A DNA stretch of 64,000 nucleotides from the NCBI GenBank assembly GCA_018064405.1, contig JAGHVG010000003.1, positions 49,152 to 113,151 on the forward strand. The letters run 5' to 3'. The DNA is from Candidatus Enterousia scatequi (GTDB taxonomy: Bacteria; Pseudomonadota; Alphaproteobacteria; Rs-D84). Below the pieces are notes generated by a model. That model had not been told where the DNA came from. It did not search any database and saw nothing but the letters and a program-made list of their open reading frames with translations. The position numbers and the translations under genes were made by a program. Shown piece by piece: positions 1,246-39,295 of the stretch (the first letter of the stretch is position 1; every line of letters begins with the position of its first letter).

Positions 1246-1347
1246 ATAAACCCATTACGTACCATATTACCCCGTTAGTCTGTGGCAAGATAGCACACAC
1301 ATACAAAAAATCAAGCGGAAATATTATAATGTTTAAAAAAATTTGAC

Positions 1348-1411
1348 GCAAGTAAAAAGTTAGTTGTTCTCACAATCATTTTTTTTGAAAAGAGATTCAC
1401 TTTTTACTTGC
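1348..1411. promoter_or_regulatory. perfect 13-bp inverted repeat (GCAAGTAAAAAGT ...38 bp... ACTTTTTACTTGC) overlapping the putative virB8 promoter (TTGCAC-18-TACAAT at ~1408-1437)
   Basis: Read directly from the sequence. The arms are at 1348-1360 and 1399-1411. A GGGGGAG Shine-Dalgarno sits at 1451-1457, 6 nt before the TTG start at 1464. Confidence 0.35.
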
Positions 1412-1463
1412 ACAATATTTATATTTTTTTCTACAATCCACTTGATAACAGGGGGAGAAAAAC

Positions 1464-2120
1464 TTGCAAACCCGCATGCAACCGCCATTTTTAATGTCGC
1501 GTATATTGACACTGGTTTTGGCCAGTGCGGTTGTCGTTTTAATCATTATGGTCGTGACACTGGGCAAAATGTTTCCTCTGGATCGTCCACAGGTGTTCTT
1601 TTTGACAACACAACCAACGGCAGATGTTGAGATAACACTGACCGAAATGCCGAAAAACGTTGAAGATTTTAAGAAAAACTTCATTATGGAATACATCAAG
1701 GCGCGCAACGAGATTGTTCCAGACATGACTGTTATGCAACGGAAATGGTCCGAAGGTGGTATAATAGATACCCTGTCAAGCAACAAGGTGTTTGCTGAGT
1801 TTATTAATCAAAATGACGATATATGGTATGCCGTATTACAAGATGCCGATAATTTCCCCGGTGTTTGCACTGTTGAATTCCCATCAGAAGTGTTTTTGCC
1901 GTTTGCAGAAAACACATATCAGGTTAAATTCATATATACATGCAATTTGGGTGGACAAACCCGCATAAAAGATTATACAATCAAATTGAAATTAGAAACT
2001 GGGGACACTGAAAAGTGGTCTGACAGATTGGATAATCCGCTTGGGATGCGGGTTATAGAATATTCTGTGATGGATGGAAATTCAGACCCATTATCTGAAC
2101 TAAACCATCTGGACAAGTAA
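1464..2120 (+). CDS. virB8: type IV secretion system protein VirB8
   Basis: 218 aa with an N-terminal TM (ILTLVLASAVVVLIIMVV) followed by a periplasmic NTF2-like region containing the conserved NPxG motif (DNPLGMRV). It is the first gene of a virB8-9-10 unit. The start is TTG at 1464, preceded by a strong SD. Confidence 0.7.
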   Translation: MQTRMQPPFLMSRILTLVLASAVVVLIIMVVTLGKMFPLDRPQVFFLTTQPTADVEITLTEMPKNVEDFKKNFIMEYIKARNEIVPDMTVMQRKWSEGGIIDTLSSNKVFAEFINQNDDIWYAVLQDADNFPGVCTVEFPSEVFLPFAENTYQVKFIYTCNLGGQTRIKDYTIKLKLETGDTEKWSDRLDNPLGMRVIEYSVMDGNSDPLSELNHLDK

Positions 2121-2140: not shown

Positions 2141-3637
2141 ATGAGCATTACAAAATCTATACTGAACATATCTTTATTTTGCATGGTGGCGGTTGGTGTT
2201 ATGCCTGCAATGGCTGAATATAATTTTTCGTGGGAAAACGCCAATGCAAATATGGCAAGTGGCAGTGTTAAGCCAGGATATGCCCAATTATCATGGTCAC
2301 AGGGCGCGGTTTTGCCAATAAAATTGCGTGATGGTATGGTCACAATGATTTCCTTGCCAAATGGCGAACAAATTGCAGATGCGGTTGTTGGTGATCAATC
2401 ATTGTTTTCAATTGAAACAACCCAGGGTGACCGAACAATGTTTGTGACCCCCACCGGTGGTAACGAAGGTATCAGCACAAATATGATTGTAATGGGGCAA
2501 TCGGGCAACAAATATATATTCTATTTAACTGCAGAACCATCCAGTTCCAGCGAAGTTGCCTATTCCCAGGTTGACATTATATTAGATGGCAATTCAAATT
2601 TACCAAATATTGCACAAAAAACGACAACATCTGGCGGAATGGCGTCTATATTTAAAAAGAAGGCATCGGCATCAAACACTGTTGGGGTTGATGGTGAAGA
2701 TTATGGTTGGATAAAGACCATGAAAATAGATCCTTCTGAATTCCGTTTTGATTTGGATATTTTCGTTCCAAATCCTGACGATTATGTGATTGCACCCGAA
2801 CGTGTATGGCGCGATCGTGTATTTACGTATATTGATTTTGGTGACAAGGTTATTTCTATGACTCAGCGTCCTGTGGTGTCATTGTTGGTTGAAGGTGGGG
2901 AATCACCCGTTAGTTTCCGTACAGATGGCGAAGATAGCCGTTTGTTGATTGTTGAAGCGGTTGGCGACATGGTATTACGCAGTGGTCAACGTATCGTATG
3001 TATCAAAAGACGTGCAAAGCCATTTTTGATTGCAGACACTGCAAGTGTTATGGCATTGGCAGAGGCCAATGTTGCACAAAGTATGATGTCTGGACAATCG
3101 TTGAATAATATTGCCTATAATGCAGATACATATGCGATGAACGCAGACGTGAATTATACTGGGACCCCTGTATTTGTTTCAGATAACACCGTACCATCTG
3201 CAAACGGGTATTATATGCCTGCGGGATACAGCACAGGTTCAGCATCTACATCTGGGCTGACGATGTTACCTATGGCGCGTGAAACAGCGGGTTCTTATTT
3301 ACCACAAACAAACATACCACTTATAACCAGTAATCAGGTTGGTGTTGCGGTTGAATTAAAATCAGATACATCTGTTAAGGCATTAAATGACTATTGGACT
3401 GGATTACTTGCTAAATTTAGTGGGGATTCTGGGGCTGGGTTATTAACACCGTATAAGGATATGGTTTTCTTTGCTGTTGATGAACAGGGTGTTGGTGATT
3501 TGGGTTCAACATCTTCAACTGCGCGTTTATATCGCCTGCGTATTGGACCAATGGCGGATATTGATACGGCCCAAAAGTTATGCGATCAGTTGTTAAAGTT
3601 CAGTGGAACATCCTGTCACGTCGTTAGAATTCAATAA
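2141..3637 (+). CDS. virB9: type IV secretion system protein VirB9 with a C-terminal SPOR (peptidoglycan-binding) domain
   Basis: Signal peptide (MVAVGVMPAMA). The VirB9/TrbG N-domain is present (SLFSIETTQGDRTMFVTP...NKYIFYLTAE), as is the VirB9 C-domain (EFRFDLDIFVPNPDDYVIAPERVWRDRVFTYIDFGDKV...LRSGQRIVCIKRR). An ~200-aa extension ends in a SPOR-like fold (QVGVAVELKSDTSVKALNDYW...ARLYRLRIGPMADIDTAQKLCDQLL). Confidence 0.75.
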   Translation: MSITKSILNISLFCMVAVGVMPAMAEYNFSWENANANMASGSVKPGYAQLSWSQGAVLPIKLRDGMVTMISLPNGEQIADAVVGDQSLFSIETTQGDRTMFVTPTGGNEGISTNMIVMGQSGNKYIFYLTAEPSSSSEVAYSQVDIILDGNSNLPNIAQKTTTSGGMASIFKKKASASNTVGVDGEDYGWIKTMKIDPSEFRFDLDIFVPNPDDYVIAPERVWRDRVFTYIDFGDKVISMTQRPVVSLLVEGGESPVSFRTDGEDSRLLIVEAVGDMVLRSGQRIVCIKRRAKPFLIADTASVMALAEANVAQSMMSGQSLNNIAYNADTYAMNADVNYTGTPVFVSDNTVPSANGYYMPAGYSTGSASTSGLTMLPMARETAGSYLPQTNIPLITSNQVGVAVELKSDTSVKALNDYWTGLLAKFSGDSGAGLLTPYKDMVFFAVDEQGVGDLGSTSSTARLYRLRIGPMADIDTAQKLCDQLLKFSGTSCHVVRIQ

Positions 3638-3643
3638 AGCGGT

Positions 3644-5971
3644 TTGTTTGGTATGAGTAAGTTAAAAGATCAATTTAATTCTATGCGCGAAAACATGCCA
3701 AAGGGCGTGATGTGGTTGCTGTTAATTGCAACATTTATCGTGGTGTTGATATTATTGACGCTAATATTTACACATTCTAACAAGGAAGGCGACAAGGAAC
3801 AATCAACACCTAACGTTGAACAAATTTATTTGAACATTGCCCCTGATGCAATTGATTGGGCTGATACGCCCGTAGATACAAAGAAAACAGAAAAAATAAA
3901 GGTATCTGCGACCGCACCAATCAAAGTATCCAAGGTTAGATTGGTTGATGATATACAAAATCTAACAGTTAAAGAAACCTGTACCTTGATTTCTGTGGCC
4001 CCAGATTTTCCTTGCACTGTAACTGTTGAATACAAACCAATGGCGGAACAGGAAAATAAAACAATACCATTATACATTGAATGGTACGGTGCAAACGAAA
4101 CTATAGATATGGTTAAACAATCTGTGTTAAATATAACAATTGGTGCATTTAAGGAATATGAAGAACCAGTATATATTCCAACGCCTGTTATTGAACCTGA
4201 ACCGGTATTTGAACCTGTTAAACAAGAAATACAAACAGCGGTTGAAGAAATTGCACCCGCATTGCCGGTTGTGTCAGATACCCCAACCGCACCATCAGAG
4301 GCATGTTCAGATTTCGCGCTGCCTGGTTATAATACAAACGGAACACAAATTGGATGGATAAAACCAGAATCTGGGACATATTATTTTCACCCATTTGATG
4401 ACAAAGAATGTAATAATCCAACGGGCATATATAATCCGGATACTGGCATTATAATGGATATTAATAAATCTGGCAAAAAAATCGGAACAGACGCGGAACA
4501 CATTGGATATTCGCCCATAATAAATGGGACAATGCCACAATTAAAATCAACGTCCGACACAACCACGCCTTCAAATTCAGTTCGCATTTATGGGGGAATG
4601 GGCAATTTAAAAGGAACATTTCTTGGTTCTGGGATGAACTTTATCAAGAATGACGTTCAAGCGGAAAAATACTTAGGATCTGGATTGGCGGAATCTGTGA
4701 TATCATCACGCCCGTATGATCGGACATTCATATTACGTCAATTCAAACCAATCCCAGCCACAATCGTATCAGAGGTTCGTGCAGACCCCAGCATATATGG
4801 TTGCGATGGCAGTGGTAATTGTACAGGTGGTGGTATCCCGGTTCGTGCAACAGTAGACAGAAATGTTTATTCCGATAATGGTCGCACAATTATTTTACCA
4901 ACTGGAACATTATTGTTGGGATATCTGAAGGGTGAATTGCCAGGACCATATAAATCAATTGGACGTATGCAAATTAATTGGTATCAATTTATTCGCCCAG
5001 ATGGCGTAGAGTTTAATTTTGCTGGCGGCCAGGATCCATATTCGGCAGATGCCCAGGGCCGTGTTGGTGTTCCGGGTCATGGTAGCACAGATTATGTTGA
5101 ACAGATTGTTATGCCTCTGCTAACGGCAATTGTACCGGCTGCGGTAAACCTGATTGCGCCAATCGCAGATACATTTGTTAATCAAATTGATTTGGATAAT
5201 AATACGGTTGTCCAAAGTGGAACGGTTCGTTCATCCGAATTAGCCAAAAATCAAGTTATAACCGCCTGGAATCAGGTTGCACAGAAATTGTTGGTTGATG
5301 CATTGGACAATACAGTTCCCCCATTTTCAATCGCCGCGGGAACACGTATAACGGTATATTCACCAGTTGATTTAATTGTGACATGCGGTGATGACGAAGG
5401 TAAAAACTGTAAAATTTCTGAATATTCTAATAACAATCGTCGTCCATGGGCATCTGTAAATAATCTGGTTGGGGTTAATTACGCAGATTCATCATGGATT
5501 GGACAGGCCCGATCATTCCAAGTAAGTAATTGTTGTAACACTGATGGCACGGTTATCCAAAATTGGCAGGCAAGCCCAGCATGTAAGGATTATGATTATA
5601 GAACCCTGCTGTTTTCATGCCAGGCAAATCAATACCAAGCAATTAATAACGCGAAACAGGCGGCATTATATGCTAATCAATCTGATCCGAATAATGCAAA
5701 TAGTGTTGCTGCTGCAACGGCAAATGGAACACAGGCGTATAATGAACAAGTATTAGGATTGAAATATAACGCAGATGGTTCTATACAAAATCCATTTAAT
5801 TCATCCACCAATAATACGGCAGCTGCGGCGGCCCCAGTGATAACGTGCGAAGATGGTAATTTACCAGATACGTATGGTTGCTGCGCGGGCGAGGTTTATA
5901 CAGATATGGGGGACCAAGGATTTAATTGTTGTCCTTCGTCAGGGGGCGATTGCTTCCCACCAATAAAATAA
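3644..5971 (+). CDS. virB10: type IV secretion system protein VirB10 with a long Cys-rich C-terminal extension
   Basis: N-terminal TM (VMWLLLIATFIVVLILLTLIF) and a Pro-rich linker (EEPVYIPTPVIEPEPVFEPV). The VirB10 beta-barrel core is recognisable (RATVDRNVYSDNGRTIILPTGTLLLGY...RMQINWYQFIRPDGVEFNF...DAQGRVGVPGH). After it come ~250 aa rich in Cys/Asn/Ala (SNCCNTDG...CCAGEVYTDMGDQGFNCCPSSGGDCF). The annotated start is TTG at 3644; a possible ATG is at 3653. Confidence 0.8.
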   Translation: MFGMSKLKDQFNSMRENMPKGVMWLLLIATFIVVLILLTLIFTHSNKEGDKEQSTPNVEQIYLNIAPDAIDWADTPVDTKKTEKIKVSATAPIKVSKVRLVDDIQNLTVKETCTLISVAPDFPCTVTVEYKPMAEQENKTIPLYIEWYGANETIDMVKQSVLNITIGAFKEYEEPVYIPTPVIEPEPVFEPVKQEIQTAVEEIAPALPVVSDTPTAPSEACSDFALPGYNTNGTQIGWIKPESGTYYFHPFDDKECNNPTGIYNPDTGIIMDINKSGKKIGTDAEHIGYSPIINGTMPQLKSTSDTTTPSNSVRIYGGMGNLKGTFLGSGMNFIKNDVQAEKYLGSGLAESVISSRPYDRTFILRQFKPIPATIVSEVRADPSIYGCDGSGNCTGGGIPVRATVDRNVYSDNGRTIILPTGTLLLGYLKGELPGPYKSIGRMQINWYQFIRPDGVEFNFAGGQDPYSADAQGRVGVPGHGSTDYVEQIVMPLLTAIVPAAVNLIAPIADTFVNQIDLDNNTVVQSGTVRSSELAKNQVITAWNQVAQKLLVDALDNTVPPFSIAAGTRITVYSPVDLIVTCGDDEGKNCKISEYSNNNRRPWASVNNLVGVNYADSSWIGQARSFQVSNCCNTDGTVIQNWQASPACKDYDYRTLLFSCQANQYQAINNAKQAALYANQSDPNNANSVAAATANGTQAYNEQVLGLKYNADGSIQNPFNSSTNNTAAAAAPVITCEDGNLPDTYGCCAGEVYTDMGDQGFNCCPSSGGDCFPPIK

Positions 5972-5993
5972 ATCGTAATAGCAACCAAACAGA

Positions 5994-6020
5994 CGTGCAT
6001 TTTGTTGCACGTTTTTTTTT
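5994..6020 (+). terminator. rho-independent terminator after virB10 (CGTGCATTTTGTTGCACG + T9)
   Basis: Hairpin followed by a 9-T run, read from the sequence. Confidence 0.6.
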
Positions 6021-6186: not shown

Positions 6187-6525
6187 ATGAACACACAAAC
6201 AATAAAACAACCCGATACATTTCATAGCGCTGAACAAATGTGGTTTTGGTTTATATACTCTAAATCATTACAAAATGGCTATATTGGGCGCCACAGTACA
6301 TCATCAAAGCGAGTATGCGAATTATTAGATTTTGAAACATTAATAACAAAATTATATTTATCTGGAAAACTGACCGACGAACAATTAAACGTTATGAAAA
6401 TTTTTGGTGACAAACGGCGCGCACCCCATCAATATATTTGGGCTGAAAATCAGGCTGCATATCAATGGAAAACCGCAATGGATGTAATAGAAATGGCGGC
6501 ACGTAAAAATGGATGGATTGAATAA
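6187..6525 (+). CDS. hypothetical protein, possible small DNA-binding protein
   Basis: 112 aa with a good SD (AAAGGAGAAGAGAAA-ATG). It has a weak HTH-like segment (LTDEQLNVMKIFG). No confident family assignment. Confidence 0.4.
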   Translation: MNTQTIKQPDTFHSAEQMWFWFIYSKSLQNGYIGRHSTSSKRVCELLDFETLITKLYLSGKLTDEQLNVMKIFGDKRRAPHQYIWAENQAAYQWKTAMDVIEMAARKNGWIE

Positions 6526-6539
6526 AAGGATTGGTAATC

Positions 6540-6881
6540 ATGGTTATTATAGGATTTTCAACAACAACTTCATTATTAATACCAAACATTTTGTGCAGCC
6601 ATTTTAAACATTGTGCGGTTATAACACAAAAACACAATAAGATGTTTCTGTATCAATTTGTGCGGTATAAACACACCGACATCATAGAAATCAATGACAG
6701 TGGAATAAATAAATTGGCTAAATATGGGTGGGTATTCATCTACATACCTAAAAACATATCATCTGATTTTAATTTGCGTAATGCCATAACCTGTGTTGAT
6801 ATGGTCAAACGCGCAATCGGATTAAAACGTTTATCCATCCAAACCCCTGATAAATTATATCACTATTTGATTGGTATTTAA
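6540..6881 (+). CDS. hypothetical protein
   Basis: 113 aa from the ATG at 6540 with an AAAGGA SD 10 nt upstream (the ORF track starts at TTG 6531). It is tightly linked to the preceding ORF and followed by a bidirectional terminator. Confidence 0.35.
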   Translation: MVIIGFSTTTSLLIPNILCSHFKHCAVITQKHNKMFLYQFVRYKHTDIIEINDSGINKLAKYGWVFIYIPKNISSDFNLRNAITCVDMVKRAIGLKRLSIQTPDKLYHYLIGI

Positions 6882-10817: not shown

Positions 10818-11651
10818 TTATACCACCAGTTTTTTTGCGATTTCTAAAAATTTTTCGGGGCTTAAATTTTCGGCGCGTTCTGTCCCAGACAATCCAAACA
10901 CCGACCAATCAACACCCGCAATTATTCCGCGTATCATTTTGCGACGTGTTGAAAATAATTTAGCCGTCAAATTTTCAACATTTTTTATATTTGTTATAGA
11001 ATTAATTTTTTTATCATTTGGTATTATTTGAACAACCGCAGATTGAACCTTGGGCTGTGGCACAAATGCAGTATTTGGAACATTAAACAAAATTTTTGCA
11101 TCTGCGACCAAACTGGTTAATACCGACAGGCGACCATATGCCTTGTCCCCAACGTGTGCAACGATACGGTCTGCAACCTCACGCTGAAACATCAATGTCA
11201 TAGATTTTATTTTTGGTGATTTATTTTCTGCGACAATATGCAACCAATTTATTAACAATTCTGTTCCGACATTATACGGCAGATTTGAACATAACGCATA
11301 ACTGTTTACACCAAATTTTGTAAAATCTGTTTTTAACGCATCACCATAAACAACCGTTAAACGCCCATTTGATGCAGATTCAATTTGTGACAAAATTGGT
11401 TCTGTCGCCCTATCCTTTTCAATTGCGATAACACGCTTTGCACCCGCCATCAATAGTGCACGTGTCAGACCAGCTGGGCCGGGTCCAACCTCTATCACAA
11501 CACTATTTGTTATATCAGGAACACTGCGTGCGATACGACCAGTTAAGTTCAAATCAAACAAAAAATTCTGGCCGAATTGCTTTTTGGGTTCCAGACCTGC
11601 AGAACGCATCATATCTGATACAGGTGGTAAAGATGCAATCATATCAGTCAT
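10818..11651 (-). CDS. rsmA: 16S rRNA (adenine1518/1519-N6)-dimethyltransferase
   Basis: Motifs QNFLFD and VIEVGPGPAGLTRAL; 277 aa. Confidence 0.9.
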   Translation of the reverse strand: MTDMIASLPPVSDMMRSAGLEPKKQFGQNFLFDLNLTGRIARSVPDITNSVVIEVGPGPAGLTRALLMAGAKRVIAIEKDRATEPILSQIESASNGRLTVVYGDALKTDFTKFGVNSYALCSNLPYNVGTELLINWLHIVAENKSPKIKSMTLMFQREVADRIVAHVGDKAYGRLSVLTSLVADAKILFNVPNTAFVPQPKVQSAVVQIIPNDKKINSITNIKNVENLTAKLFSTRRKMIRGIIAGVDWSVFGLSGTERAENLSPEKFLEIAKKLVV

Positions 11652-12241
11652 AACTTTTTACGCCCCCCAAATGCCAACGTTAATGTTCCGTCATCAATAT
11701 AATCCAGATCCCCACCCAATGGCATTCCAGATGCCAGTTCTGAAAACGCAATATTATGTGCATCACCGATAACCGACATAATGTATGACTGAGTTGTTTT
11801 ACCTTCAACTGTATTTGGCAAGGCAAAAATTATTTCGATAATATTTTCGTTTTTTATTCTGGCGGATATAGATGCGATATTTAAATCATCCGGCATTGTG
11901 CCATTTGCCCCAGATATCACACCACCTGTGATATGGTAACGCCCAAAATAAAACCCTGATTTTTCAATTACCCACACATCCGCCATATCGCGCACAACAC
12001 ATAATTGACCGTTAGAACGTTCATGGTTAGAACAAAATTCACACATATCTTTATCAGTTAAAACGCCGCAATTTTTACATGTATGAATCGTTTCTGCGGC
12101 GGATTGTAACGCAGCCGCCAATGCGGTTGCACGCCCCGTCTTATCCTGTAACAATGCCAAAACAATACGCTGGGCGGCACGCGATCCAACACGTGGTAAT
12201 TTTGCAAACATCTTTATTAATTTTTCAATCTGCGAATTCAT
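11648..12241 (-). CDS. recR: recombination protein RecR
   Basis: From MNSQIEKLIKMFAKLPRVGSRAAQR. Has the C4 zinc finger (CKNCGVL...CEFC) and a Toprim domain. The annotated ORF extends to 12382, but that extension would overlap dacC. Confidence 0.85.
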   Translation of the reverse strand: MNSQIEKLIKMFAKLPRVGSRAAQRIVLALLQDKTGRATALAAALQSAAETIHTCKNCGVLTDKDMCEFCSNHERSNGQLCVVRDMADVWVIEKSGFYFGRYHITGGVISGANGTMPDDLNIASISARIKNENIIEIIFALPNTVEGKTTQSYIMSVIGDAHNIAFSELASGMPLGGDLDYIDDGTLTLAFGGRKKL

Positions 12242-12254
12242 TCTGACACCCCAA

Positions 12255-13373
12255 TTAATGAAACACATAACAATCAATACCGTTGGCGATGGCTTTGTTT
12301 TTGATTGATTGTGCAGATGATTCAGATAGCCCAGACGCACGAACACGATATAGGCCGTTTGGTGCCTGGGAAATCGTTGCATTTACACCAATGGCGTTTT
12401 TAACCTTTTGCACCTGAGCATCAGCAGAACCGTACGATGAAAACGCACCAAATTGAACGCCCGCATTTCCAGATTGCACAACCGCCTTTGGTTTATCTGT
12501 TGCATATTGTGCCATCGGATTATTCTGGGTAATTGGATGTGATTCAACCACAGATGCAGGCGCAACATCTGCGGGGGCAGTTTCACCAATAATATTAAAA
12601 CCACGATTTAACATATTTGTTGCAGTAGATGCACGAACATCCTTGTCATTTGCACCCAAAACGACCGCTATCAAATGCGTATTTCTACGATGTGCCGTTG
12701 CAACCAATGAATATTTTGATTTGTTTGTGAATCCTGTTTTCATGCCATCACACCCGGGATACACGCCCAACAGGCGATTGCCGTTTGTGTATGTTTTGCC
12801 ACCGAATGTCCATGTTTTAATTCCGAAATACTTCCAATATTGTGGGTAATGTTTATATACCGCAACCGCCAATAGCGCGATATCACGTGCGGTTGATAAA
12901 TGATCATCATTTGGCAGACCCGATGAATTTTCAAAATTTGTGTTTGTTAATCCGATTTCACGTGCAACACGTGTCATTAAATCTGCAAAATTACCCTCCT
13001 TGCCGCCCTGCAGGTTTTCCGCCAAAACACGCGCGACATCATTTGCACTGTGCACTGCGACCGCCTTGATTGCATCTTCAACACTGATTTTGCTTCCCGC
13101 AGACAACCCCAGTTTTACCGGTTCTGCATTTGCCGCATTGTTTGACACAATTAAATAATCATCCAAATGCAGACGTCCATGTTCCAGTGCATCAAACGTT
13201 AAATACAGTGTCATAATCTTGGTCAAACTGGCGGGGTAATTCGCAACATTTGCATTTTCAGAATATAAAACACGCCCTGTATCCATATCTGCAACCAGCG
13301 CAGCACGATAGCCAGCCGCATTTGCGCCAAAAAACACAAATAAAGTTACTAAAAATGCGAAAAGGTTCCTCAT
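12255..13373 (-). CDS. dacC: D-alanyl-D-alanine carboxypeptidase (S11, PBP5/6-like) with a C-terminal SPOR domain
   Basis: Signal peptide; SxxK motif (ASLTKIM); SGN and KTG motifs. The C-terminus is SPOR-like (GVQFGAFSSYGSADAQ...GLYRVRASGLSESSAQSI). Confidence 0.8.
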   Translation of the reverse strand: MRNLFAFLVTLFVFFGANAAGYRAALVADMDTGRVLYSENANVANYPASLTKIMTLYLTFDALEHGRLHLDDYLIVSNNAANAEPVKLGLSAGSKISVEDAIKAVAVHSANDVARVLAENLQGGKEGNFADLMTRVAREIGLTNTNFENSSGLPNDDHLSTARDIALLAVAVYKHYPQYWKYFGIKTWTFGGKTYTNGNRLLGVYPGCDGMKTGFTNKSKYSLVATAHRRNTHLIAVVLGANDKDVRASTATNMLNRGFNIIGETAPADVAPASVVESHPITQNNPMAQYATDKPKAVVQSGNAGVQFGAFSSYGSADAQVQKVKNAIGVNATISQAPNGLYRVRASGLSESSAQSIKNKAIANGIDCYVFH

Positions 13374-13434
13374 GCCATATTAAGGTTAGTAAAAAAACAA
13401 TCAGCAGGTCAATAAATTTATAATGCCATAATTA

Positions 13435-14805
13435 TTACACCAATGTGCGTAAACTGATTTTTCGGTCATCAACAATTACAATATCACCAAAGTTGATTCC
13501 GCATGCATGCGCTGCGCCAAACGCATCGCGCATACCGAATAATTCAGGGTTATAAATCGGAATAACACCACGCGACAAACACAACTGGTTTGCAACAATT
13601 TCACTGCCACACACAGAAATAATCGGAACATCAGGACGACGGCACGCAATTTCAACACTGGTATTCCCATCCATATCAAAAACGACTATTGCTGGTGATT
13701 TATTCAATCGCACCATTGAAACCACCGAACGCGACCAATCATTGTCCGCACCACAATCAATATCAGACCAATCGTATGGATTTGCAATTGTATCCATATC
13801 TGCAAACGATAAAATCTTGGACATTGTTTCAATCGCCAAGATTGGATTTATGCCGACCGTTGTTTCCTCTGACGTCATGGTTGAATCAACACGCAAATAT
13901 GCGGATGTCGCGACATCTGAAATCTCTGCCCGTGTGGGGAATTCAGATTCCACCATTGATGCCAACATTTGTGTCGCCATAATCACAGGTCGATTCATAG
14001 ACCGGCACATGCGAATTATCTTACGCGATATAGATGGAACCTGTTCAAATGGAATCTCTATCGCCAAATCGCCACGCGCAACCATCACCGCATCAGATGC
14101 GGCAATAATATCGTGCAAGTCATCCAATGCCTGGGGGCGTTCTATTTTGGCAATTATTTTTATCGGCTTTGATGTGCGCGCCGTTATAAAATCACGCACA
14201 GATTCAATATCTGATGCGCGTTGAACAAAACTGACCGCGACAAAATCAGGATCCTTGGTTATGGCATATTCCAAATCCTGAATATCCTTGGGCGTTAACA
14301 CAGGTGTATCTATCAGTGTATCCGGCAGATTAAAACCACGCCGCGACCATATTTCATTTCCACGAACAACCGTTGTTGTCACAGCCCCCGGTTTAACATC
14401 CGAAACACGCATTTCTATTTTGCCATCATTTAATAACACCCTGTCCCCAATGTGCAAAGATTGCAACACATCATCATGCGGCAGGCACACACGACGCGAA
14501 TTACCCGGCCGCCTATCGTTATCAAAGGTAAATTTTTGCCCCACAACCAACTTATAATGCCCGTCTGTTTCAAAATCACCAATACGGTGTTTTGGGCCCT
14601 GCAGGTCAATAATTATTGCCACCGGCATATTTAATTCAGATGATATTTTACGAACAGAATCTATCTTATCCCCCTGAACATCACCAGTATCATGGCTAAA
14701 ATTAAGGCGTACAGCATTTGCACCCGAATGAATTAATCCCATCAAAACGTCAGGTGTTTCGGATTGCGGGCCGATAGATGCGGTTATCTTGGTAAATTTA
14801 TACAT
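13435..14805 (-). CDS. pyk: pyruvate kinase
   Basis: Starts MYKFTKITASIGPQS...; contains the K+-binding NFSHD motif. 456 aa. Confidence 0.92.
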   Translation of the reverse strand: MYKFTKITASIGPQSETPDVLMGLIHSGANAVRLNFSHDTGDVQGDKIDSVRKISSELNMPVAIIIDLQGPKHRIGDFETDGHYKLVVGQKFTFDNDRRPGNSRRVCLPHDDVLQSLHIGDRVLLNDGKIEMRVSDVKPGAVTTTVVRGNEIWSRRGFNLPDTLIDTPVLTPKDIQDLEYAITKDPDFVAVSFVQRASDIESVRDFITARTSKPIKIIAKIERPQALDDLHDIIAASDAVMVARGDLAIEIPFEQVPSISRKIIRMCRSMNRPVIMATQMLASMVESEFPTRAEISDVATSAYLRVDSTMTSEETTVGINPILAIETMSKILSFADMDTIANPYDWSDIDCGADNDWSRSVVSMVRLNKSPAIVVFDMDGNTSVEIACRRPDVPIISVCGSEIVANQLCLSRGVIPIYNPELFGMRDAFGAAHACGINFGDIVIVDDRKISLRTLV

Positions 14806-14876
14806 ATCTCTCTTCTTGATTTTTACAATTTATGGTATATCATATTGATAGCAAATAAACAAGGGGAAAACATACA

Positions 14877-15125
14877 ATGAAAAACGCAAATCACGGTTCA
14901 ATTGACAACGAACAACTGGTCAACATTATTGAAAGAATTGAAAAATTAAATGAAGAAACTGCTGCAATTGCCGCCGACATCAAGGAAATTTATAGCGAGG
15001 CCAAATCTGCAGGATTTGATCCAAAGTATATTCGTCAAATGATACGTTTGCGTAAACTGGACCCGGATGAATTAGATGAAGCAGACGAATTAACCCAAAT
15101 GTATAGAAACGCACTTGGTATATAA
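14877..15125 (+). CDS. gapR: DUF2312/GapR-like nucleoid-associated protein
   Basis: 82 aa reading NEQLVNIIERIEKLNEETAAIAADIKEIYSEAKSAGFDPKYIRQMIRLRK, the GapR signature. Confidence 0.7.
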   Translation: MKNANHGSIDNEQLVNIIERIEKLNEETAAIAADIKEIYSEAKSAGFDPKYIRQMIRLRKLDPDELDEADELTQMYRNALGI

Positions 15126-15439
15126 TGAAAACCTTTATAAAAAACATTGAAGATTTCACCTGCGCCCATTGTGGCGCAGTTGTTCATGGAAACGGATATA
15201 CAAATCATTGTCCAAAATGTTTGTGGTCCCGACATGTTGATAACAACCCTGGCGACAGATTGGCCGAATGTGGCGGCATGATGCACCCTATATCAGCCGA
15301 ACCAACAAGCGATGGTTTTATAATTACACATAAATGCGAAAAATGTGGCAAAACAAAAAAACAACACAGTGCGGCTGATGATGATGCCTCAATTTTAATT
15401 ACACTAACAACAAATCCTGAATTTATATTCGGGAAATAA
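15125..15439 (+). CDS. RNHCP domain zinc-ribbon protein
   Basis: Contains the literal motif YTNHCPKCLWSRHVD plus CEKCGK. The start overlaps the gapR stop (TAATG). Confidence 0.6.
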   Translation: MKTFIKNIEDFTCAHCGAVVHGNGYTNHCPKCLWSRHVDNNPGDRLAECGGMMHPISAEPTSDGFIITHKCEKCGKTKKQHSAADDDASILITLTTNPEFIFGK

Positions 15440-15445
15440 TCGGGC

Positions 15446-17446
15446 TTGACCGCGGTTGGCCTAAATTCCTATAATTTTTATATGCAGAATTTTTGGAAAA
15501 ATCAGAATCAAAATTTCTTTCTGTGGGTGCCGATTGTTATGGCATTTGGCGCCGCCCTATATTTCACATTAAACACAGAACCCGAAATTCAATATCCTGT
15601 TATTGCGACGCTATGTATGGTGATTATTATATTCGCAAAAAATTTAAACAAAATATTACGATTAATCGGAATATTTTTATTTGGGTTTCTGTATGCTGTG
15701 TCTTTTGCACGTCTGATAAGCACACCTATAATACCCTATCCATTGCGGGATATTAATACAGATGCAACCGTTATAAATATTGATTATGGTAGCGATAAAA
15801 ATCGGGCGATTTTGTCGGTTCCACTAAATGGTGGCTTGGCCAATGTTCGTCTGACATTACCAGAAATAACACAACCAATTCAAATTGGCGATAAAATCAA
15901 TATTAATGCGACATTGTTTCCACCAAACAAAATGGATGCACCCGATACATTTGATTATGCACGATGGGCATATTTTAATAATTTAAGCGCAACTGGTTTT
16001 ATCACAGAATATCAAGTCATCAACCACACGAATACAACATCATTTAACAATCTGCGTAATAATATTCACAACGATGCAAAATCAGTATTAACTGACGCAT
16101 TGATACTAGGGTATAAAAACGCATTACCGGAAACACAACACGACACGTGGACAAACGTTGGAATTGCACACATCTGGTCAATCAGCGGTTTTCATATGAC
16201 ATTAATCGGTGGATGGCTGTTCGTATTGTTTTATTCTATATTTCGCATGATTGGATTTATTACGCGCCGGATACCTGCGCGAATTCCTGCGACAATATGT
16301 GCATGGATTGGTTTAATATTTTACGTCGGTATATCTGGGGCCAGTGTTGCAACATTACGCGCATTTTTGATGACGTCACTGATATTCCTGGCGATAATAT
16401 TGGGACGTAATGTGATTAATTTGCGCAATGTATGTTTTGCCTTTTTAATTATATTTCTGATTAATCCGCACTACATAATGCAGGCGGGTTTTCAATTATC
16501 ATTTGCGGCAATTTTCGGTCTGATTTGGTTTTGGAACAGAAACAAAACAAATATATTTGATGAACCAGAACGTAAAAACAAAACACTAAACACAATATAT
16601 AAAATAATTATGACAACTGTTATTGCGACACTGTTCACATTGCCGTTTGTAATGACGCATTTTAATTCTGTTCCTGTATACACTTTGTTGGGAAACTTAA
16701 TATTACTGCCGATATTTTCATGTGTAATTATGCCATTGGTATTGATTGGCACACTATGCGCCGTATTTAACGTTCATATATTCTTAGATATGGCAAATTA
16801 TGTTTATGATTTTGCGCTAAATATTGCCACACACATATCAACGCTGCCCTTTGCAACATTAAACTTGCCACATATTTCAAACATCGCATTTACTATTATT
16901 ATTTTGGGTATGTTTATGATTATTTTTATAGTATCTACCAAGAAAGCAAACTATTTGATTGGTGGAACTTGTATTATGATTGGCATAATATGTATTATTG
17001 CAACCCCAAAGCCAGTGTTTTATATCACGGGTGACCACGAATTGATTGGTATGGTATATAATAACAAACTGGAATTTAATAAGGCACGTGCATCAAATCA
17101 CTATTTCGCGTTTAACACATTTAGAAAATTAAACGGTGAACCTGAATCAGAAATTAACACACGACATAAATGTCCAGATGGTGTTTGTATATATCAATCA
17201 GACAAATTCACGATTGCATATATTCAAAAATTTGTTCCACTAAACAAAAATTTTGGTGCGTTATGTAAAGACGGTTCCATAACCTATATAGCATCCTATT
17301 TTGATATACAATCAAAATTATGCGCAAATAAAATTTTACGTAATGGATTTGTAATCTATAAAAACGGGAAAATAAAATACACGCCAACTAATCGTTGGTG
17401 GCATATTCCGCACGAACAAAAAACAGCCCTGACGCCGGTGCCGTAG
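15446..17446 (+). CDS. comEC: ComEC/Rec2 DNA internalisation channel (competence domain only; no recognisable C-terminal metallo-beta-lactamase HxHxDH motif)
   Basis: Polytopic protein with the competence-domain motif WSISGFHMTLIGGWLFVLF. 666 aa. Confidence 0.75.
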   Translation: MTAVGLNSYNFYMQNFWKNQNQNFFLWVPIVMAFGAALYFTLNTEPEIQYPVIATLCMVIIIFAKNLNKILRLIGIFLFGFLYAVSFARLISTPIIPYPLRDINTDATVINIDYGSDKNRAILSVPLNGGLANVRLTLPEITQPIQIGDKININATLFPPNKMDAPDTFDYARWAYFNNLSATGFITEYQVINHTNTTSFNNLRNNIHNDAKSVLTDALILGYKNALPETQHDTWTNVGIAHIWSISGFHMTLIGGWLFVLFYSIFRMIGFITRRIPARIPATICAWIGLIFYVGISGASVATLRAFLMTSLIFLAIILGRNVINLRNVCFAFLIIFLINPHYIMQAGFQLSFAAIFGLIWFWNRNKTNIFDEPERKNKTLNTIYKIIMTTVIATLFTLPFVMTHFNSVPVYTLLGNLILLPIFSCVIMPLVLIGTLCAVFNVHIFLDMANYVYDFALNIATHISTLPFATLNLPHISNIAFTIIILGMFMIIFIVSTKKANYLIGGTCIMIGIICIIATPKPVFYITGDHELIGMVYNNKLEFNKARASNHYFAFNTFRKLNGEPESEINTRHKCPDGVCIYQSDKFTIAYIQKFVPLNKNFGALCKDGSITYIASYFDIQSKLCANKILRNGFVIYKNGKIKYTPTNRWWHIPHEQKTALTPVP

Positions 17447-18131
17447 GACCCGCAGCGCTGCGATTTTTCGCACCGAATATTGCATTTATATCATATGGTT
17501 TGCCCAAGCCAATTTCTACCAATGTTCCAACCATATTACGCACCTGGTGGTGTAAAAAAGAACGTGCAGAAAATTCAAAAATAATTTCATCACCGTTTTG
17601 TTTTATTTCACATCTGTCCAGCGTCTTGATTGGGGATTTTGCCTGACATTCAGACGACCTGAATGATGTAAAATCATGATTGCCAATTAACTTATTACCC
17701 GCATCCTGCATGGCAGCAACATCTAATTTACGCGGCACCCACCACACACGATTTTTATTTAACACAGGTTGTGCAGCACGATTTAACACAACATATTTAT
17801 AATGACGCGCAACACAAGAAAAACGCGCGTTAAAATCATCAGAAACAATCATACAACCCAACACTGAAACAGGTTTATCATTAAGATAAAAATTTAATGC
17901 ACGCATAACCGTATTTGCATCCGTATCAGATTGCAAATCAAAATGCGCACACATTGCAATTGCATGCACACCGGCATCTGTGCGCCCAGCAGCAATAACA
18001 TCTGGTTTCTCGCCACAAAATGATTTTACGGCATCTTTTATTAAAGATTGGACAGATGGTCCCTGGGTGTTTTCCTGCCACCCTATTAAATTCGTTCCAT
18101 CATATTCAAGAATTACTTTATATCGCGTCAT
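17388..18131 (-). CDS. truA: tRNA pseudouridine(38-40) synthase
   Basis: Catalytic motif GRTDAGVHA; 247 aa. Its 3' end overlaps the comEC 3' end by 59 bp (convergent). Confidence 0.9.
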   Translation of the reverse strand: MTRYKVILEYDGTNLIGWQENTQGPSVQSLIKDAVKSFCGEKPDVIAAGRTDAGVHAIAMCAHFDLQSDTDANTVMRALNFYLNDKPVSVLGCMIVSDDFNARFSCVARHYKYVVLNRAAQPVLNKNRVWWVPRKLDVAAMQDAGNKLIGNHDFTSFRSSECQAKSPIKTLDRCEIKQNGDEIIFEFSARSFLHHQVRNMVGTLVEIGLGKPYDINAIFGAKNRSAAGPTAPASGLFFVRAEYATND

Positions 18132-18134
18132 ATT

Positions 18135-18323
18135 TTATCTGCACTTACGGCATTTAATACATTTTTGCATCTGCGCATCAAAGTTTTTTGACACCCAAGA
18201 AATATATGTAACACAAGTGGCGCACTTATAACTAGGTACCTTGCAGCCCAGACATGGACATTTATTGTTTAGTTCTGAATCAGACACACTACATTTATGA
18301 AAACCACATTTTTTTACCGACAT
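18135..18323 (-). CDS. small cysteine-rich protein (62 aa, 10 Cys), paralog of the upstream ORF
   Basis: Reads MSVKKCGFHKCSVSDSELNNKCPCLGCKVPSYKCATC...CIKCRKCR. An AAAGGA SD lies 9 nt before the ATG. Its stop is 3 nt before the truA start. Confidence 0.5.
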   Translation of the reverse strand: MSVKKCGFHKCSVSDSELNNKCPCLGCKVPSYKCATCVTYISWVSKNFDAQMQKCIKCRKCR

Positions 18324-18338
18324 TCATCATCCTTTCGT

Positions 18339-18551
18339 TTAACGTTTTTTAAAAAAATGACATCTTGAGCAACGCATAAGCAATAAATTTTGCATATATT
18401 CCATATCACGAGCACATTTGGCAATTGAACAATTTGTACAATCTTCGCCCAGGCAACGTATACATTCACAACGCGAATACATCTTTGCAACATCGCCAAC
18501 CGTGGCATTACAAAATTGTGCAACAAAATCACATTTATCCAATTTTACCAT
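18339..18551 (-). CDS. small cysteine-rich protein (70 aa, 10 Cys)
   Basis: Reads MVKLDKCDFVAQFCNATVGDVAKMYSRCECIRCLGEDCTNCSIAKC...RCSRCHFFKKR. The ATG is 4 nt after the fmt stop. The Cys spacing parallels the 62-aa ORF (K-C-x-F...C; C-x-C-L-G...C; C-x-[RK]-C at the C-terminus). The longer 113-aa version would overlap fmt and is rejected. Confidence 0.45.
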   Translation of the reverse strand: MVKLDKCDFVAQFCNATVGDVAKMYSRCECIRCLGEDCTNCSIAKCARDMEYMQNLLLMRCSRCHFFKKR

Positions 18552-18555
18552 TTTG

Positions 18556-19371
18556 TTATTTACCCATAATAATATCTGCGCCACGCAGACCGTTAACAAA
18601 ACTTTCCCAATCCATTGGTTTTTTACCGTCTGGCTGGATACGCAATATTTCAAGTTTATTATCTGATATGCGCGTTTCAAGTATTTTTACCCCAATACTA
18701 TTTATAGTCGTACGCCCACCACCCAATGCACGAACCAAATTATGAATTTGCACAGGTTTAAGTTCCCAATCAATAATGGAATCTGAATTTGAAAATTTAT
18801 GTGTAAATGTTGGGGTTCCCATCTGTGCAATCGGAATATACCGGTCAGGTGCATCAAAATATTCGTTTAACATATCAACCGCCACAACAGAAACCTTATG
18901 CTCAACATCAGCATTTGTGTCGTTTATATCAATTTTTATATTCTTGCGTATTAAAATATCGCCAGCGTCCATCTCTTGGGTCATTTCCATCAGGCACACA
19001 TCCATATTATCGTCACCGTTTAATATCGCACTACGTATCGGTGACGGACCACGATATCGTGGCAAACTGCTGGGGTGAATGTTGATGCACTTTGCACTGG
19101 ATAAAACATTTTCCCCCAATATAACCCCATACGATATAACCACAATATATTCTGCCCCAGGATTAGTAAATTCCTTGATTGATGTATAAACCGGCAGACC
19201 TTTAGATTCCGCCCAAACATGAACCGGTGATTTTGTTAAAATTTGTTTGCGTCCCTGGGGTTTTGGGGCGCGCGTATAAACAGCCAAAATATCATGCTTG
19301 GTTGCCAGCGCATCAAACACAGGAACAACAAAATCGTTTGTACCCATCAATATCAATTTACGTTTTTGCAT
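18556..19371 (-). CDS. fmt: methionyl-tRNA formyltransferase
   Basis: Motifs HPSSLPRYRGPSPI and the C-terminal domain. Overlaps the def stop by 1 nt (classic def-fmt operon). Confidence 0.9.
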   Translation of the reverse strand: MQKRKLILMGTNDFVVPVFDALATKHDILAVYTRAPKPQGRKQILTKSPVHVWAESKGLPVYTSIKEFTNPGAEYIVVISYGVILGENVLSSAKCINIHPSSLPRYRGPSPIRSAILNGDDNMDVCLMEMTQEMDAGDILIRKNIKIDINDTNADVEHKVSVVAVDMLNEYFDAPDRYIPIAQMGTPTFTHKFSNSDSIIDWELKPVQIHNLVRALGGGRTTINSIGVKILETRISDNKLEILRIQPDGKKPMDWESFVNGLRGADIIMGK

Positions 19372-19871
19372 TACTTATGCCTCCGCACTTTGCGCATAAC
19401 CATTTCACGACGGGTGGCAGGTAAATAGTCAATGAATAATATACCATCCAGGTGATCTGTTTCATGTTGAACGATACGCCCTACGACACCAGACATTTCG
19501 GCACGCATCTGTTTGCCATCTATATCCGTCCATTCAACAATAACACTTTCGGGACGTGTCACATTTGCAAACACCGGTAAATTATCCCCACCTAATACAG
19601 ACAGGCACCCTTCTTCCATCGTACAAGTTTTATCACTGTGTGATACAATGACAGGATTTATCATTTTAAAAACCTGCCCAGAATCAGGATCCATCATTAC
19701 AAGAAAGCGTTTCAAAATATTAACTTGTGGGGCCGCCAATCCAACGCCATTTTGCGCATGCATCATTGAAACCATTTCGTCCATTATAGACAACAAATTA
19801 TCATCCACCTGCGAAACGGGTTCACATTTTGATCTTAGCGCTGAATCACCACAAAGTTTCATTTGCAACAT
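19371..19871 (-). CDS. def: peptide deformylase
   Basis: The three metal-binding motifs are present: GVGLAAPQ, EGCLS and HETDHLDG. The start is chosen at MLQMKL (19871); the ORF is open to 19946. Confidence 0.9.
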   Translation of the reverse strand: MLQMKLCGDSALRSKCEPVSQVDDNLLSIMDEMVSMMHAQNGVGLAAPQVNILKRFLVMMDPDSGQVFKMINPVIVSHSDKTCTMEEGCLSVLGGDNLPVFANVTRPESVIVEWTDIDGKQMRAEMSGVVGRIVQHETDHLDGILFIDYLPATRREMVMRKVRRHK

Positions 19872-37610: not shown

Positions 37611-39254
37611 TTATTCCTGGCCCTGTGGTTTTGGTATAACAAACGTATCGTTATAATACGACAAGAAACGCGTTCCTGTGGCACAATATATTTTTTGCAG
37701 TGAATCCTTATACTCACGAACCGCGGCAACCCAACGTTCGTTAATATCACTCTGGGCACCCTGGTACGCAACAAATCCTCCCAGCGCGCCACCCGCACCC
37801 GCACCAATCAAGGTTGACTTTAACCGTGCCTTGTTCCCCAAATCAACAATTCCACCATCAGATGCATCCTGATAAATTGGGTTAAAGAAATTCATGTCAT
37901 AGTCCGTTGCCCCCGTAGAATCACCCATATTGTTACGCAGATATATTGGACCACTTAATCTGCCACGCAAATCGGACCAATCTGATTTTTTCCAACCGAA
38001 TGGCTTATTTGGTAATGTGTTTAACATTTCAACCATAACTGCCTTGGCCGCACCATTTGGAATAGCCGCCGATTCCACAAGATAATACATAGCTGCATCA
38101 AAATCACATTGGGTTGCAACAGAACCGTTAACCTGTTGACAATATGCAGGCGACGCCACTGCAAATTTTTCCAATTCATCTGCATTCATATCAGATAAAT
38201 ATGTGACTTGTTTCTCACGATCCTTGATATTCGTATCCAAATACTTGTCCATATTGGTCAACTTAACCTGGGTCAGATTCACGATTTGACATGCAGAATT
38301 GTCACTTGTACACTCTAATCCGCGACTGTTTTTTATATCATAATAGTATTTTTTATTTTGGTCTGTTTGCTCGGTTTCAATGTACGCGCCCCACAGGCAT
38401 TTGGCTGATCGGCCATCTATTTTACAATTTTCAATTCGCATCACAGAATCGCCGGATGCCGCCATATTTCCAATTACACCACCCGCGGCCATGTTCACAC
38501 CCGTTGATAAAATAATATCACCTGCAACCTTGCCAGAATAAGTGCTGCCCGCCATCAATGCCGCACCCGACAACGCGCCAATTGCGGTTCCTGTGATTTT
38601 ACCCTTGTCTGTTCCAATCAAGCCATTTTTACCAACATCATTTTTGCCAGCTATGTTCCCACCAATTCCACCAACCAATGCCGCAGCAGCAATTTTTAAC
38701 CCAGCATTTTGTTTTTGTTCCTGGTCCATGACCTTGGTTACATCTTCTATTGTTGGTTCTTTATCCGCAGGGAATATGACATTTTCAGCCACAGCCGTAA
38801 TAGAATATTCAGGGAAATAATCAATATTACATTTTATCCCGTCGCCAGTAGCAACATTCGCGCGTGCCAAAACCAAGTCACTGCCGTTTTCACCCATTTG
38901 ATATCCACGCAATTCAACAACCGCGACACATTGACGCGGTCCAGCCGCAGACAGCCCTGCCGTTGGTTTATCAATCGCAAACGACCCAGTTGGGTAAATC
39001 ATAGAACACATATCTAAATCAGTGTCGGTCGAAATGTTATCCGCAACGACGTTTGGCGCGGCCACCATTTGTTGGTTCACAGGCACTGTTTCGAGAATCT
39101 GCGCAGTTGTTGGCGCAGCATATAAATTATTTTGCATATTCATTTTGGCGTTATAGACACGCGCAGAATTATTATCTATGCGCAACGCAGCCACGGCTTC
39201 TATATCTGGGACAGAAACAAACAAAACTGGTAAAATAATTAAACTTTTTTTCAT
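37611..39254 (-). CDS. large secreted protein with an internal glycine-zipper segment
   Basis: From MKKSLIILPVLFVSVPDIEAVAA. Gly-zipper-like stretch AAALVGGIGGNIAGKNDVGKNGLIGTDKGKITGTAIGALSGAALMAGSTYSGKVAG. Multiple Cys pairs. The annotated ORF starts 12 codons upstream at 39290. Confidence 0.55.
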   Translation of the reverse strand: MKKSLIILPVLFVSVPDIEAVAALRIDNNSARVYNAKMNMQNNLYAAPTTAQILETVPVNQQMVAAPNVVADNISTDTDLDMCSMIYPTGSFAIDKPTAGLSAAGPRQCVAVVELRGYQMGENGSDLVLARANVATGDGIKCNIDYFPEYSITAVAENVIFPADKEPTIEDVTKVMDQEQKQNAGLKIAAAALVGGIGGNIAGKNDVGKNGLIGTDKGKITGTAIGALSGAALMAGSTYSGKVAGDIILSTGVNMAAGGVIGNMAASGDSVMRIENCKIDGRSAKCLWGAYIETEQTDQNKKYYYDIKNSRGLECTSDNSACQIVNLTQVKLTNMDKYLDTNIKDREKQVTYLSDMNADELEKFAVASPAYCQQVNGSVATQCDFDAAMYYLVESAAIPNGAAKAVMVEMLNTLPNKPFGWKKSDWSDLRGRLSGPIYLRNNMGDSTGATDYDMNFFNPIYQDASDGGIVDLGNKARLKSTLIGAGAGGALGGFVAYQGAQSDINERWVAAVREYKDSLQKIYCATGTRFLSYYNDTFVIPKPQGQE

Positions 39255-39295
39255 ACTCTCTCCCCACCACACATATACACGCCAAGACAATATTT

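Follow-up and report, generated by a model that had tools for sequence, protein, structure and literature searches.

Fusion of VirB9 with a probable C-terminal SPOR-family domain in the type IV secretion locus of Candidatus Enterousia

The 64,000-nucleotide stretch of DNA considered here (the window, meaning the whole stretch; positions 49,152 to 113,151 of the forward strand of contig JAGHVG010000003.1, GenBank assembly GCA_018064405.1) belongs to Candidatus Enterousia scatequi and contains three adjacent genes for homologs of the VirB8, VirB9 and VirB10 subunits of type IV secretion systems (T4SS; Table 1). The subject of this work is the virB9 gene, which lies 20 nucleotides downstream of virB8 and 6 nucleotides upstream of virB10. 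The encoded protein is a complete VirB9 extended by some 200 residues, which apparently end in a domain of the SPOR family. This architecture had been proposed in a sequence-only reading of the locus and holds up on three counts, namely, a Pfam score above threshold, the topology of the structural models, and, at weak E-values, the identity of the top matches in a Foldseek search.

Table 1. Features of the virB8-virB9-virB10 region (window coordinates; residue numbers refer to the encoded protein; aa, amino acids)
Feature	Coordinates	Strand	Basis and remarks
virB8 homolog, 218 aa, first gene of the three-gene operon	1464..2120	+	Pfam VirB8, E 3e-13, residues 12-202
virB9-SPOR fusion gene, 498 aa plus stop, ATG start	2141..3637	+	single open reading frame; CagX and SPOR Pfam matches
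Sec-type signal peptide, approximately residues 1-25, ...VMPAMA/EY	2141..2215	+	hydrophobic core followed by AxA, read by eye
VirB9 core, N- and C-terminal beta domains, residues 49-290	2285..3010	+	Pfam CagX
Nearly invariant predicted helical segment, residues 296-326, FLIADTASVMALAEANVAQSMMSGQSLNNIAY	3026..3118	+	97% identity, 80 genomes
Variable low-complexity linker, residues 327-374, rich in N, Y, T, S, G, A and P	3119..3262	+	44% identity; pLDDT <50
Pre-domain motif, residues 375-399, MxPxxRxTAGSYLPQxNIPLIxSNQ	3263..3337	+	79% identity, fixed length
SPOR-family domain, residues 400-498	3338..3634	+	Pfam, AlphaFold, Foldseek, hhalign
virB10/TrbI homolog, 775 aa, long N- and C-terminal extensions	3644..5971	+	Pfam TrbI, E 1.4e-14
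Terminator-like hairpin at the close of the virB8-virB9-virB10 operon, 9-bp stem followed by T-run, TTTTTTTACG	5991..6014	+	consensus scan, pattern match only

The assignment of the core is straightforward. The CagX/VirB9/TrbG profile (PF03524) matches with 83.1 bits (cut-off 34.2; E 3e-23) over model positions 5-197 of 198, and 208 residues remain C-terminal to this match, which ends at residue 290. The score against the NCBIfam equivalog model for P-type VirB9 (TIGR02781) is 55.1 bits, below the threshold of 217.7, and the solved chain nearest in sequence, and the only one found, is TrwF, the VirB9 of plasmid R388 (266 aa), which is matched in the N-terminal domain only (E 0.0012). Judging by these profile scores, the protein is a divergent member of the VirB9 superfamily rather than an equivalog of the Agrobacterium-type VirB9, and the gene appears to encode a genuine VirB9 subunit of the T4SS outer-membrane core complex.

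For the C-terminal domain, the Pfam SPOR profile (PF05036) matches residues 457-495 when the whole protein is searched, with 22.8 bits against a gathering score of 21 (E 1.1e-4), so that the SPOR domain that had been predicted in the C-terminal region is recovered above the family threshold; when only the last 100 residues are searched, the score is 26.2 bits (E 9.8e-6). The match recurs in all 24 aligned orthologs at E <= 0.01 (best E 1.7e-6) and, at E <= 1, in 22 of 26 diverse C-terminal domains from relatives that are 18-67% identical to the domain of the window protein (best 5.3e-8); no other Pfam family is recurrent in this set. Comparison with an alignment of the FtsN, CwlC and RlpA SPOR domains using hhalign gives 83% probability (E 8.5e-6), and isolated C-terminal fragments of this protein are named 'SPOR domain-containing protein, partial' by NCBI. 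AlphaFold models of both the isolated domain and the full-length protein show the fold beta-alpha-beta-beta-alpha-beta, with predicted local distance difference test (pLDDT) values of about 70-80 in the structured elements; in the full-length model, these are beta1 (residues 401-409), alpha1 (412-426), beta2 (442-447), beta3 (463-471), alpha2 (474-488) and beta4 (493-497). The full-length model is poor outside the VirB9 N-terminal and SPOR domains (mean pLDDT 44.5) and was therefore left out of the fold search. In the search of the PDB with Foldseek, DedD (6ztg), RlpA (6i09 and 6i05) and CwlC (1x60) account for four of the top five matches, at E-values of 0.009-0.03, with probability 1.00 and a target-normalized TM score of 0.70 for the two RlpA entries; the fourth-ranked match is the DNA-binding domain of the viral protein LANA. 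Taken together, these results make it highly likely that the domain shares family-level homology with SPOR, its first half being highly divergent.

The structure of the RlpA SPOR domain in complex with glycan provides a reference for the ligand site: contacts with the denuded strand are made by the side chains of Q270, R302, R309 and R311, and F274 stacks on a sugar; Q270 is the single highly conserved position of SPOR domains, and its equivalents, Q251 in FtsN and Q351 in DamX, are needed for septal localization (PMC6895207). In the window protein, the segment Y-R465-L-R467-I-G-P aligns with H-R309-V-R311-L-G-P of RlpA and with NR285VVIGP of FtsN, and arginine is found at positions 465 and 467 in 20 and 21 of the 26 family members, respectively. 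By this alignment, the arginine pair that matches the basic patch binding the carboxylate of N-acetylmuramic acid (MurNAc) is retained, which argues for a glycan-carboxylate ligand. Two further features set this family apart, a conserved tryptophan in helix 1 and a pair of cysteines, Cys481 in helix 2 and Cys492 at the start of strand 4, that is invariant (26/26) and probably forms a disulfide.

A chance Pfam match, or an error of sequencing or assembly that merged two genes, would be the trivial explanation of this architecture, and the single-protein SPOR score, barely above threshold, might be thought to favor it. A database search, however, yielded 1321 homologs, of which the best 120 are full length (487-528 aa, 96-100% query coverage, 72-100% identity). 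Furthermore, with one genome taken per GTDB species, 218 stretches encode a VirB9 relative, and in each of the 80 that were analyzed, which come from independently assembled genomes whose titles name Candidatus Enterousia or uncultured gut Alphaproteobacteria (a single record, of 958,618 bp, is labeled a chromosome), the VirB9 frame is collinear and runs unbroken to the shared C-terminus ...VVR[IMV]Q. The missed stop or frameshift between two genes that the sequence-only reading had named as a possible objection thus finds no place in an uninterrupted frame with full-length homologs and the same C-terminus in 80 genomes. Given also the recurrence of the SPOR match among the relatives, an artifact is practically out of the question. 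Two of these loci (L004 and L074) are titled Bacteroides fragilis and Muribaculaceae bins and yet carry the alphaproteobacterial VirB9-SPOR gene; these are probably mis-binned or mislabeled assemblies.

Across the 80 genomes, the regions of the protein evolve at markedly different rates. Identity to the window protein is 70% in the N-terminal domain (103-118 aa) and 94% in the C-terminal beta domain (residues 185-295), with no length variation, and peaks in the adjoining helical segment, the most conserved stretch of VirB9, which likewise does not vary in length and for which helices are predicted at residues 301-317 and 321-334 with low pLDDT. The linker that follows is both the least conserved part of this region and variable in length (38-63 aa), whereas the pre-domain motif shows no such variation and the SPOR domain itself retains 84% mean identity essentially without indels (99-101 aa). 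In all, about 110 residues lie between the VirB9 core and the SPOR domain; the variable linker comprises about 50-70 residues in the window protein and about 40 in a homolog from Sphingosinicella. The combination of a conserved terminal domain with a hypervariable tether argues for function and against an artifact; at the level of sequence comparison, the domain is shown to be under strong purifying selection, on an apparently flexible tether. The signal peptide is poorly conserved (35%), with a helix predicted by AlphaFold at residues 7-19. A lipoprotein N-terminus was considered and rejected because the residues before Cys14, L-F, do not make up a lipobox.

The architecture extends well beyond Enterousia. 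An exhaustive search of 1.84 billion representatives at 50% identity retrieved 459 relatives at E <= 0.001, many of them 430-620 aa long, and all 80 distant long relatives examined match the CagX/VirB9 Pfam profile. A local iterative search with a hidden Markov model (HMM) recovered the C-terminal domain in 37 of the best 150 representatives; another 24 long representatives carry a more divergent end domain with the same Cys-x(9-11)-Cys pattern and as a group reach 93.6% hhalign probability against the family profile. Pfam itself detects SPOR in only 11 of the 80 long representatives, and a database search with the profile of the diverse domains returned only short fragments from the same clade, with no taxonomic breadth. 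The presence of the domain on many distant VirB9 proteins marks it as a trait of the family rather than a one-off of this genome. Among 72,556 plasmids in PLSDB, the domain was found on only three, from Sphingosinicella, Erythrobacter and Microvirga. Hence, metagenomes contain this architecture commonly, and sequenced plasmids only rarely.

The plasmids of Sphingosinicella sp. BN140058 and Erythrobacter aureus YH-07 encode VirB9 proteins of 430 and 432 aa, respectively, that match the family HMM at about 1e-16 and belong to clusters running through virB4, virB8, virB9, virB10, virB11 and virD4; in the Erythrobacter cluster, VirB2 and VirB4 are annotated by name, and a MobA/MobL relaxase gene adjoins the cluster on the Sphingosinicella plasmid. 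Microvirga sp. VF16 has a divergent variant of the C-terminal domain, and Azospirillum p5 has no such domain. In an uncultured genome (L081), the gene order is virB4, five unassigned genes, virB8, a small unassigned ORF (open reading frame), a second virB8, the VirB9-SPOR gene, VirB10 and virB11, and the fusion protein, of 537 aa, has a Pfam SPOR match of 25 bits. In a related lineage (L086-L089), the order is two copies of virB2, virB3, virB4, four unassigned genes, virB8, a 62-aa ORF, a second virB8 and virB9. Thus, virB8 is duplicated and four or five large unassigned genes follow virB4 in both cases, and virB2 is duplicated in L086-L089, where a type IV pilus/secretin-like cluster (secretin, TcpQ, PilO-like, T2SSE ATPase) is located directly upstream. 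The ORF of 62-68 aa that is found beside virB8 in these relatives could be a VirB7 analog.

We infer, from the alignments and structural models combined, that the VirB9 core resides in the outer-membrane complex and that the tethered SPOR-family domain binds glycan of the sacculus and thus anchors or positions the complex, a reading to which we assign a probability of roughly 0.6. The protein would be exported through its Sec signal peptide, which would place the domain in the periplasm, and the core would assemble with VirB10 beneath the outer membrane. The variable linker could then let the SPOR domain of each copy reach down to the sacculus, where the face of the beta-sheet bearing the arginine pair would bind glycan strands, so that the complex would be held to, or positioned on, the peptidoglycan. 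A substrate is apparently at hand: the window encodes a class A penicillin-binding protein (PBP; 53827..55896), indicating that the organism has peptidoglycan; Enterousia, with genomes of about 0.75-1.0 Mb, has a rod shape and peptidoglycan genes; and RodA, MreB and MrdA are reported in the order Rs-D84 to which it belongs (PMC12306168).

Several observations count against this interpretation. The Pfam SPOR match covers only positions 37-75 of the 76-position model, that is, the second half, and the hhalign match likewise spans only beta3-alpha2, the beta1-alpha1-beta2 half being too divergent to align. The model of the isolated domain is of medium confidence only (mean pLDDT 64, predicted TM score 0.56), and the Foldseek E-values, of about 1e-2, are weak. 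Profile searches of PDB sequences with both narrow and diverse alignments of the domain reached no SPOR entry and gave only chance antibody or coiled-coil matches, apparently because SPOR domains are too divergent for such a route. At the ligand site, the sugar-stacking phenylalanine at the end of beta1 is not kept, and the position of the hallmark glutamine appears to be occupied by Glu405, in a column with 18 E, 7 D and 1 Q among the 26 sequences; this low-confidence placement relies on a manual motif match (IELGS in the family versus LQVGAF) and a greedy hhalign alignment in which beta1 is weakly aligned. If correctly placed, an acidic residue at this point should disfavor the MurNAc carboxylate and speaks for a changed specificity or else an internal salt bridge, and the ligand is therefore perhaps not the canonical one. 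Finally, as regards the machine itself, virB4, virB6, virB11 and virD4 were not found among the ten largest other ORFs of the window searched with Pfam. With VirB4 of a distant relative as the query, only the own lineage of that relative, with its contiguous virB2-virB9 clusters, was returned, and there were no Enterousia matches.

How the domain would use the wall can be read in more than one way, and the alternatives to anchoring overlap with it in part and are not mutually exclusive. Every SPOR domain that has been characterized binds to denuded septal glycans and localizes to the septum (PMC6895207; bioRxiv 10.1101/2022.07.01.498525), and this generality suggests a targeting device that, as in FtsN, DamX, DedD and RlpA, recognizes glycan processed by amidases. 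New core complexes would then be assembled at the site of division, with its already open wall, and would later find themselves at the new poles, with no need for a dedicated VirB1 lytic transglycosylase. Polar localization of T4SS is known in other bacteria, which would fit such a route, and the idea is attractive because no VirB1-like gene is found beside these operons: no VirB1/SLT-like gene adjoins virB8-virB10 in the window, and in the virB cluster of Erythrobacter aureus, no unassigned ORF matches an SLT family. However, this absence pertains to small regions rather than whole genomes, and the glutamine on which septal localization of FtsN and DamX depends is seemingly replaced by Glu or Asp, so that we consider targeting to the septum unlikely, if well worth keeping in view. 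The same replacement, together with the divergent first half of the domain and the invariant cysteines and helix-1 tryptophan, neither of which is a SPOR hallmark, would be accommodated by a repurposed SPOR fold that binds a different feature of the wall, such as N-deacetylated sugars or peptide-bearing strands, or else a protein partner. It might, for instance, build a periplasmic ring or attach to one, or it could stand in for the missing VirB7 lipoprotein; no ORF for a small lipoprotein resembling VirB7 adjoins the operon in the window (including the interval 1246..1463), and the pre-domain motif and the nearly invariant helix (97%) suggest additional contacts. Such repurposing sits less well with the retained arginine pair of the glycan-binding patch, with SPOR being the sole family matched repeatedly, and with a low-complexity linker of variable length, quite unlike a rigid ring component; on balance, it strikes us as doubtful, slightly more so than septal targeting.

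It is far harder to credit the domain as an adhesin, with the tail crossing or skirting the outer-membrane cap so that the domain is displayed on the surface and attaches to a target cell by its wall or glycans. The C-terminal domain of the pKM101 VirB9 has been reported to be surface accessible, the neighboring VirB10 carries a long Cys-rich tail, and Enterousia, whose reduced genome measures about 0.75-1 Mb, is believed to rely on partners (PMC12306168). Yet there is no sign of export past the periplasm, the ligands of SPOR domains are normally shielded in intact cells, and the domain is also present in ordinary conjugation clusters on plasmids of free-living Sphingomonadales, which together make this very improbable. 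Overall, the domain probably ties or targets the secretion machine to peptidoglycan. As a more speculative synthesis, which we regard as unlikely, the family could be a T4SS-specific SPOR subfamily, defined by the acidic residue in place of glutamine, the arginine pair and the alpha2-beta4 cysteine pair, that reads a non-canonical mark of the wall, for example, N-deacetylated or otherwise modified strands at zones of growth or division. It would thereby decide where VirB9 and VirB10 are inserted and replace the functions of VirB1 and VirB7 in a large, mostly uncultured lineage of alphaproteobacterial T4SS.

The window protein and its operon share with the canonical VirB9, TraO (pKM101) and TrwF (R388) the CagX match over nearly the full model, the order virB8-virB9-virB10 and a signal peptide. 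Unlike the much shorter TrwF, the 498-aa window protein continues beyond the C-terminal beta domain with the conserved helix, the variable linker and the SPOR-family domain, and, unlike in canonical VirB9 systems, no VirB7 gene is seen beside virB9 in the window. CagX of the Helicobacter pylori Cag T4SS is a VirB9 homolog that is similarly lengthened, by species-specific additions (PMC13417560); here, in contrast, the addition is a recognizable wall-binding domain at the C-terminus, and no CagX-specific region was detected. SPOR domains usually comprise about 70-100 aa with the order beta-alpha-beta-beta-alpha-beta and are located at the C-terminus after a disordered low-complexity linker (PMC6895207), and in size, predicted fold and placement, the VirB9 domain resembles those of FtsN, DamX, DedD, RlpA and CwlC, sharing with RlpA the beta3 motif xRxRxGP, in which the arginines match R309 and R311. 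It differs from the known SPOR domains in the apparent Glu or Asp at the glutamine position, in the missing aromatic residue at the end of beta1, and in a 14-residue insertion between beta2 and beta3 that is present in the Enterousia clade; the cysteine pair is at alpha2/beta4, whereas that of FtsN is C252/C312. The carrier differs as well, being a subunit of a secretion machine and not a division or wall-enzyme protein.

Wall-binding modules are known from several other trans-envelope machines, including the OmpA-like DotK of Dot/Icm, TagL-type domains of type VI secretion, GspA/ExeA of type II secretion, and the LysM domains of FimV and TsaP in type IV pili. These modules have OmpA-like, PG_binding_1 or LysM folds and are carried by accessory proteins. 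The VirB9 proteins described here would likewise endow a trans-envelope machine with its own wall-binding module, but, unlike in those cases, a fold of the SPOR type is fused straight onto a core subunit. How T4SS core complexes traverse the peptidoglycan layer and relate to it is poorly understood; the answers usually given are a lytic transglycosylase, VirB1, and a lipoprotein, VirB7. With a probable wall-binding domain inside VirB9 itself, conserved in the genomes of about 80 Enterousia-like species and found in many other lineages, another solution suggests itself.

A literature search found no paper containing both VirB9 and a SPOR domain, and among the listed papers that name the SPOR domain together with type IV secretion, none describes such a fusion, as judged by titles and abstract openings. 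Precomputed Pfam annotation already lists PF05036 together with PF03524 for two homologs, so the fusion had been seen by automated pipelines and interpreted by nobody; the full-length proteins are labeled only 'TrbG/VirB9 family', which hides the second domain. The fusion is the mark of a T4SS lineage, large and for the most part uncultured, in gut alphaproteobacteria whose genomes are very small and in which the conservation of a chromosomal T4SS is itself of biological interest. It also offers a testable handle, consisting of one small domain, two arginines and one acidic residue, and because the cultured Sphingosinicella sp. BN140058 and Erythrobacter aureus YH-07 carry the architecture on plasmids, experiments are feasible.

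The genomic surroundings of the operon are stable. The virB genes are flanked on the upstream side by tRNA-Trp, secE and nusG and on the downstream side by yidC and lspA, all of which are on the opposite strand, and the order nusG-secE / virB8-virB9-virB10-orf112-orf116 / yidC-lspA is kept across the 80 related loci: virB8 is upstream of virB9 in all 80, virB10 is present in all 80, and nusG and secE flank the operon in 78. VirB9 is far better conserved than its operon partners, with a median identity over these loci of 73%, as against 45% for VirB8 and 51% for VirB10. The constant position between secE-nusG and yidC-lspA indicates vertical inheritance in a reduced genome. Among the ten largest other ORFs of the window, none is a T4SS gene by Pfam, eight are housekeeping genes (gyrA, class I aminoacyl-tRNA synthetase, class A PBP, AcrB, RNase J, pyruvate kinase, ComEC and Na+/H+ exchanger) and two have no Pfam match. 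From the flanking genes and the housekeeping surroundings, virB8-virB9-virB10 is therefore a chromosomal three-gene operon. The two ORFs without a match at E <= 1e-5 code for 558 aa (37611..39290, minus strand) and 493 aa (61393..62874, plus strand). The ComEC-like competence protein (15446..17446, plus strand) is thus encoded in a genome that is reduced.

Just 3' of virB10, on the plus strand, ORFs of 112 aa (6187..6525) and 116 aa (6531..6881) are kept in 72 and 71 of the 80 genomes, respectively; these ORFs have no significant Pfam match and may be T4SS-associated. VirB10 of the window scores 55 bits against the NCBIfam VirB10 domain. Its TrbI domain is confined to residues 370-573 and is followed by about 200 residues that end in a Cys-rich tail (...GCCAGEVYTDMGDQGFNCCPSSGGDCFPPIK). 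In L081, VirB10 (11611..19764) reaches 2717 aa and is packed with beta-flower repeats. VirB10 in this T4SS lineage gives the impression of heavy decoration.

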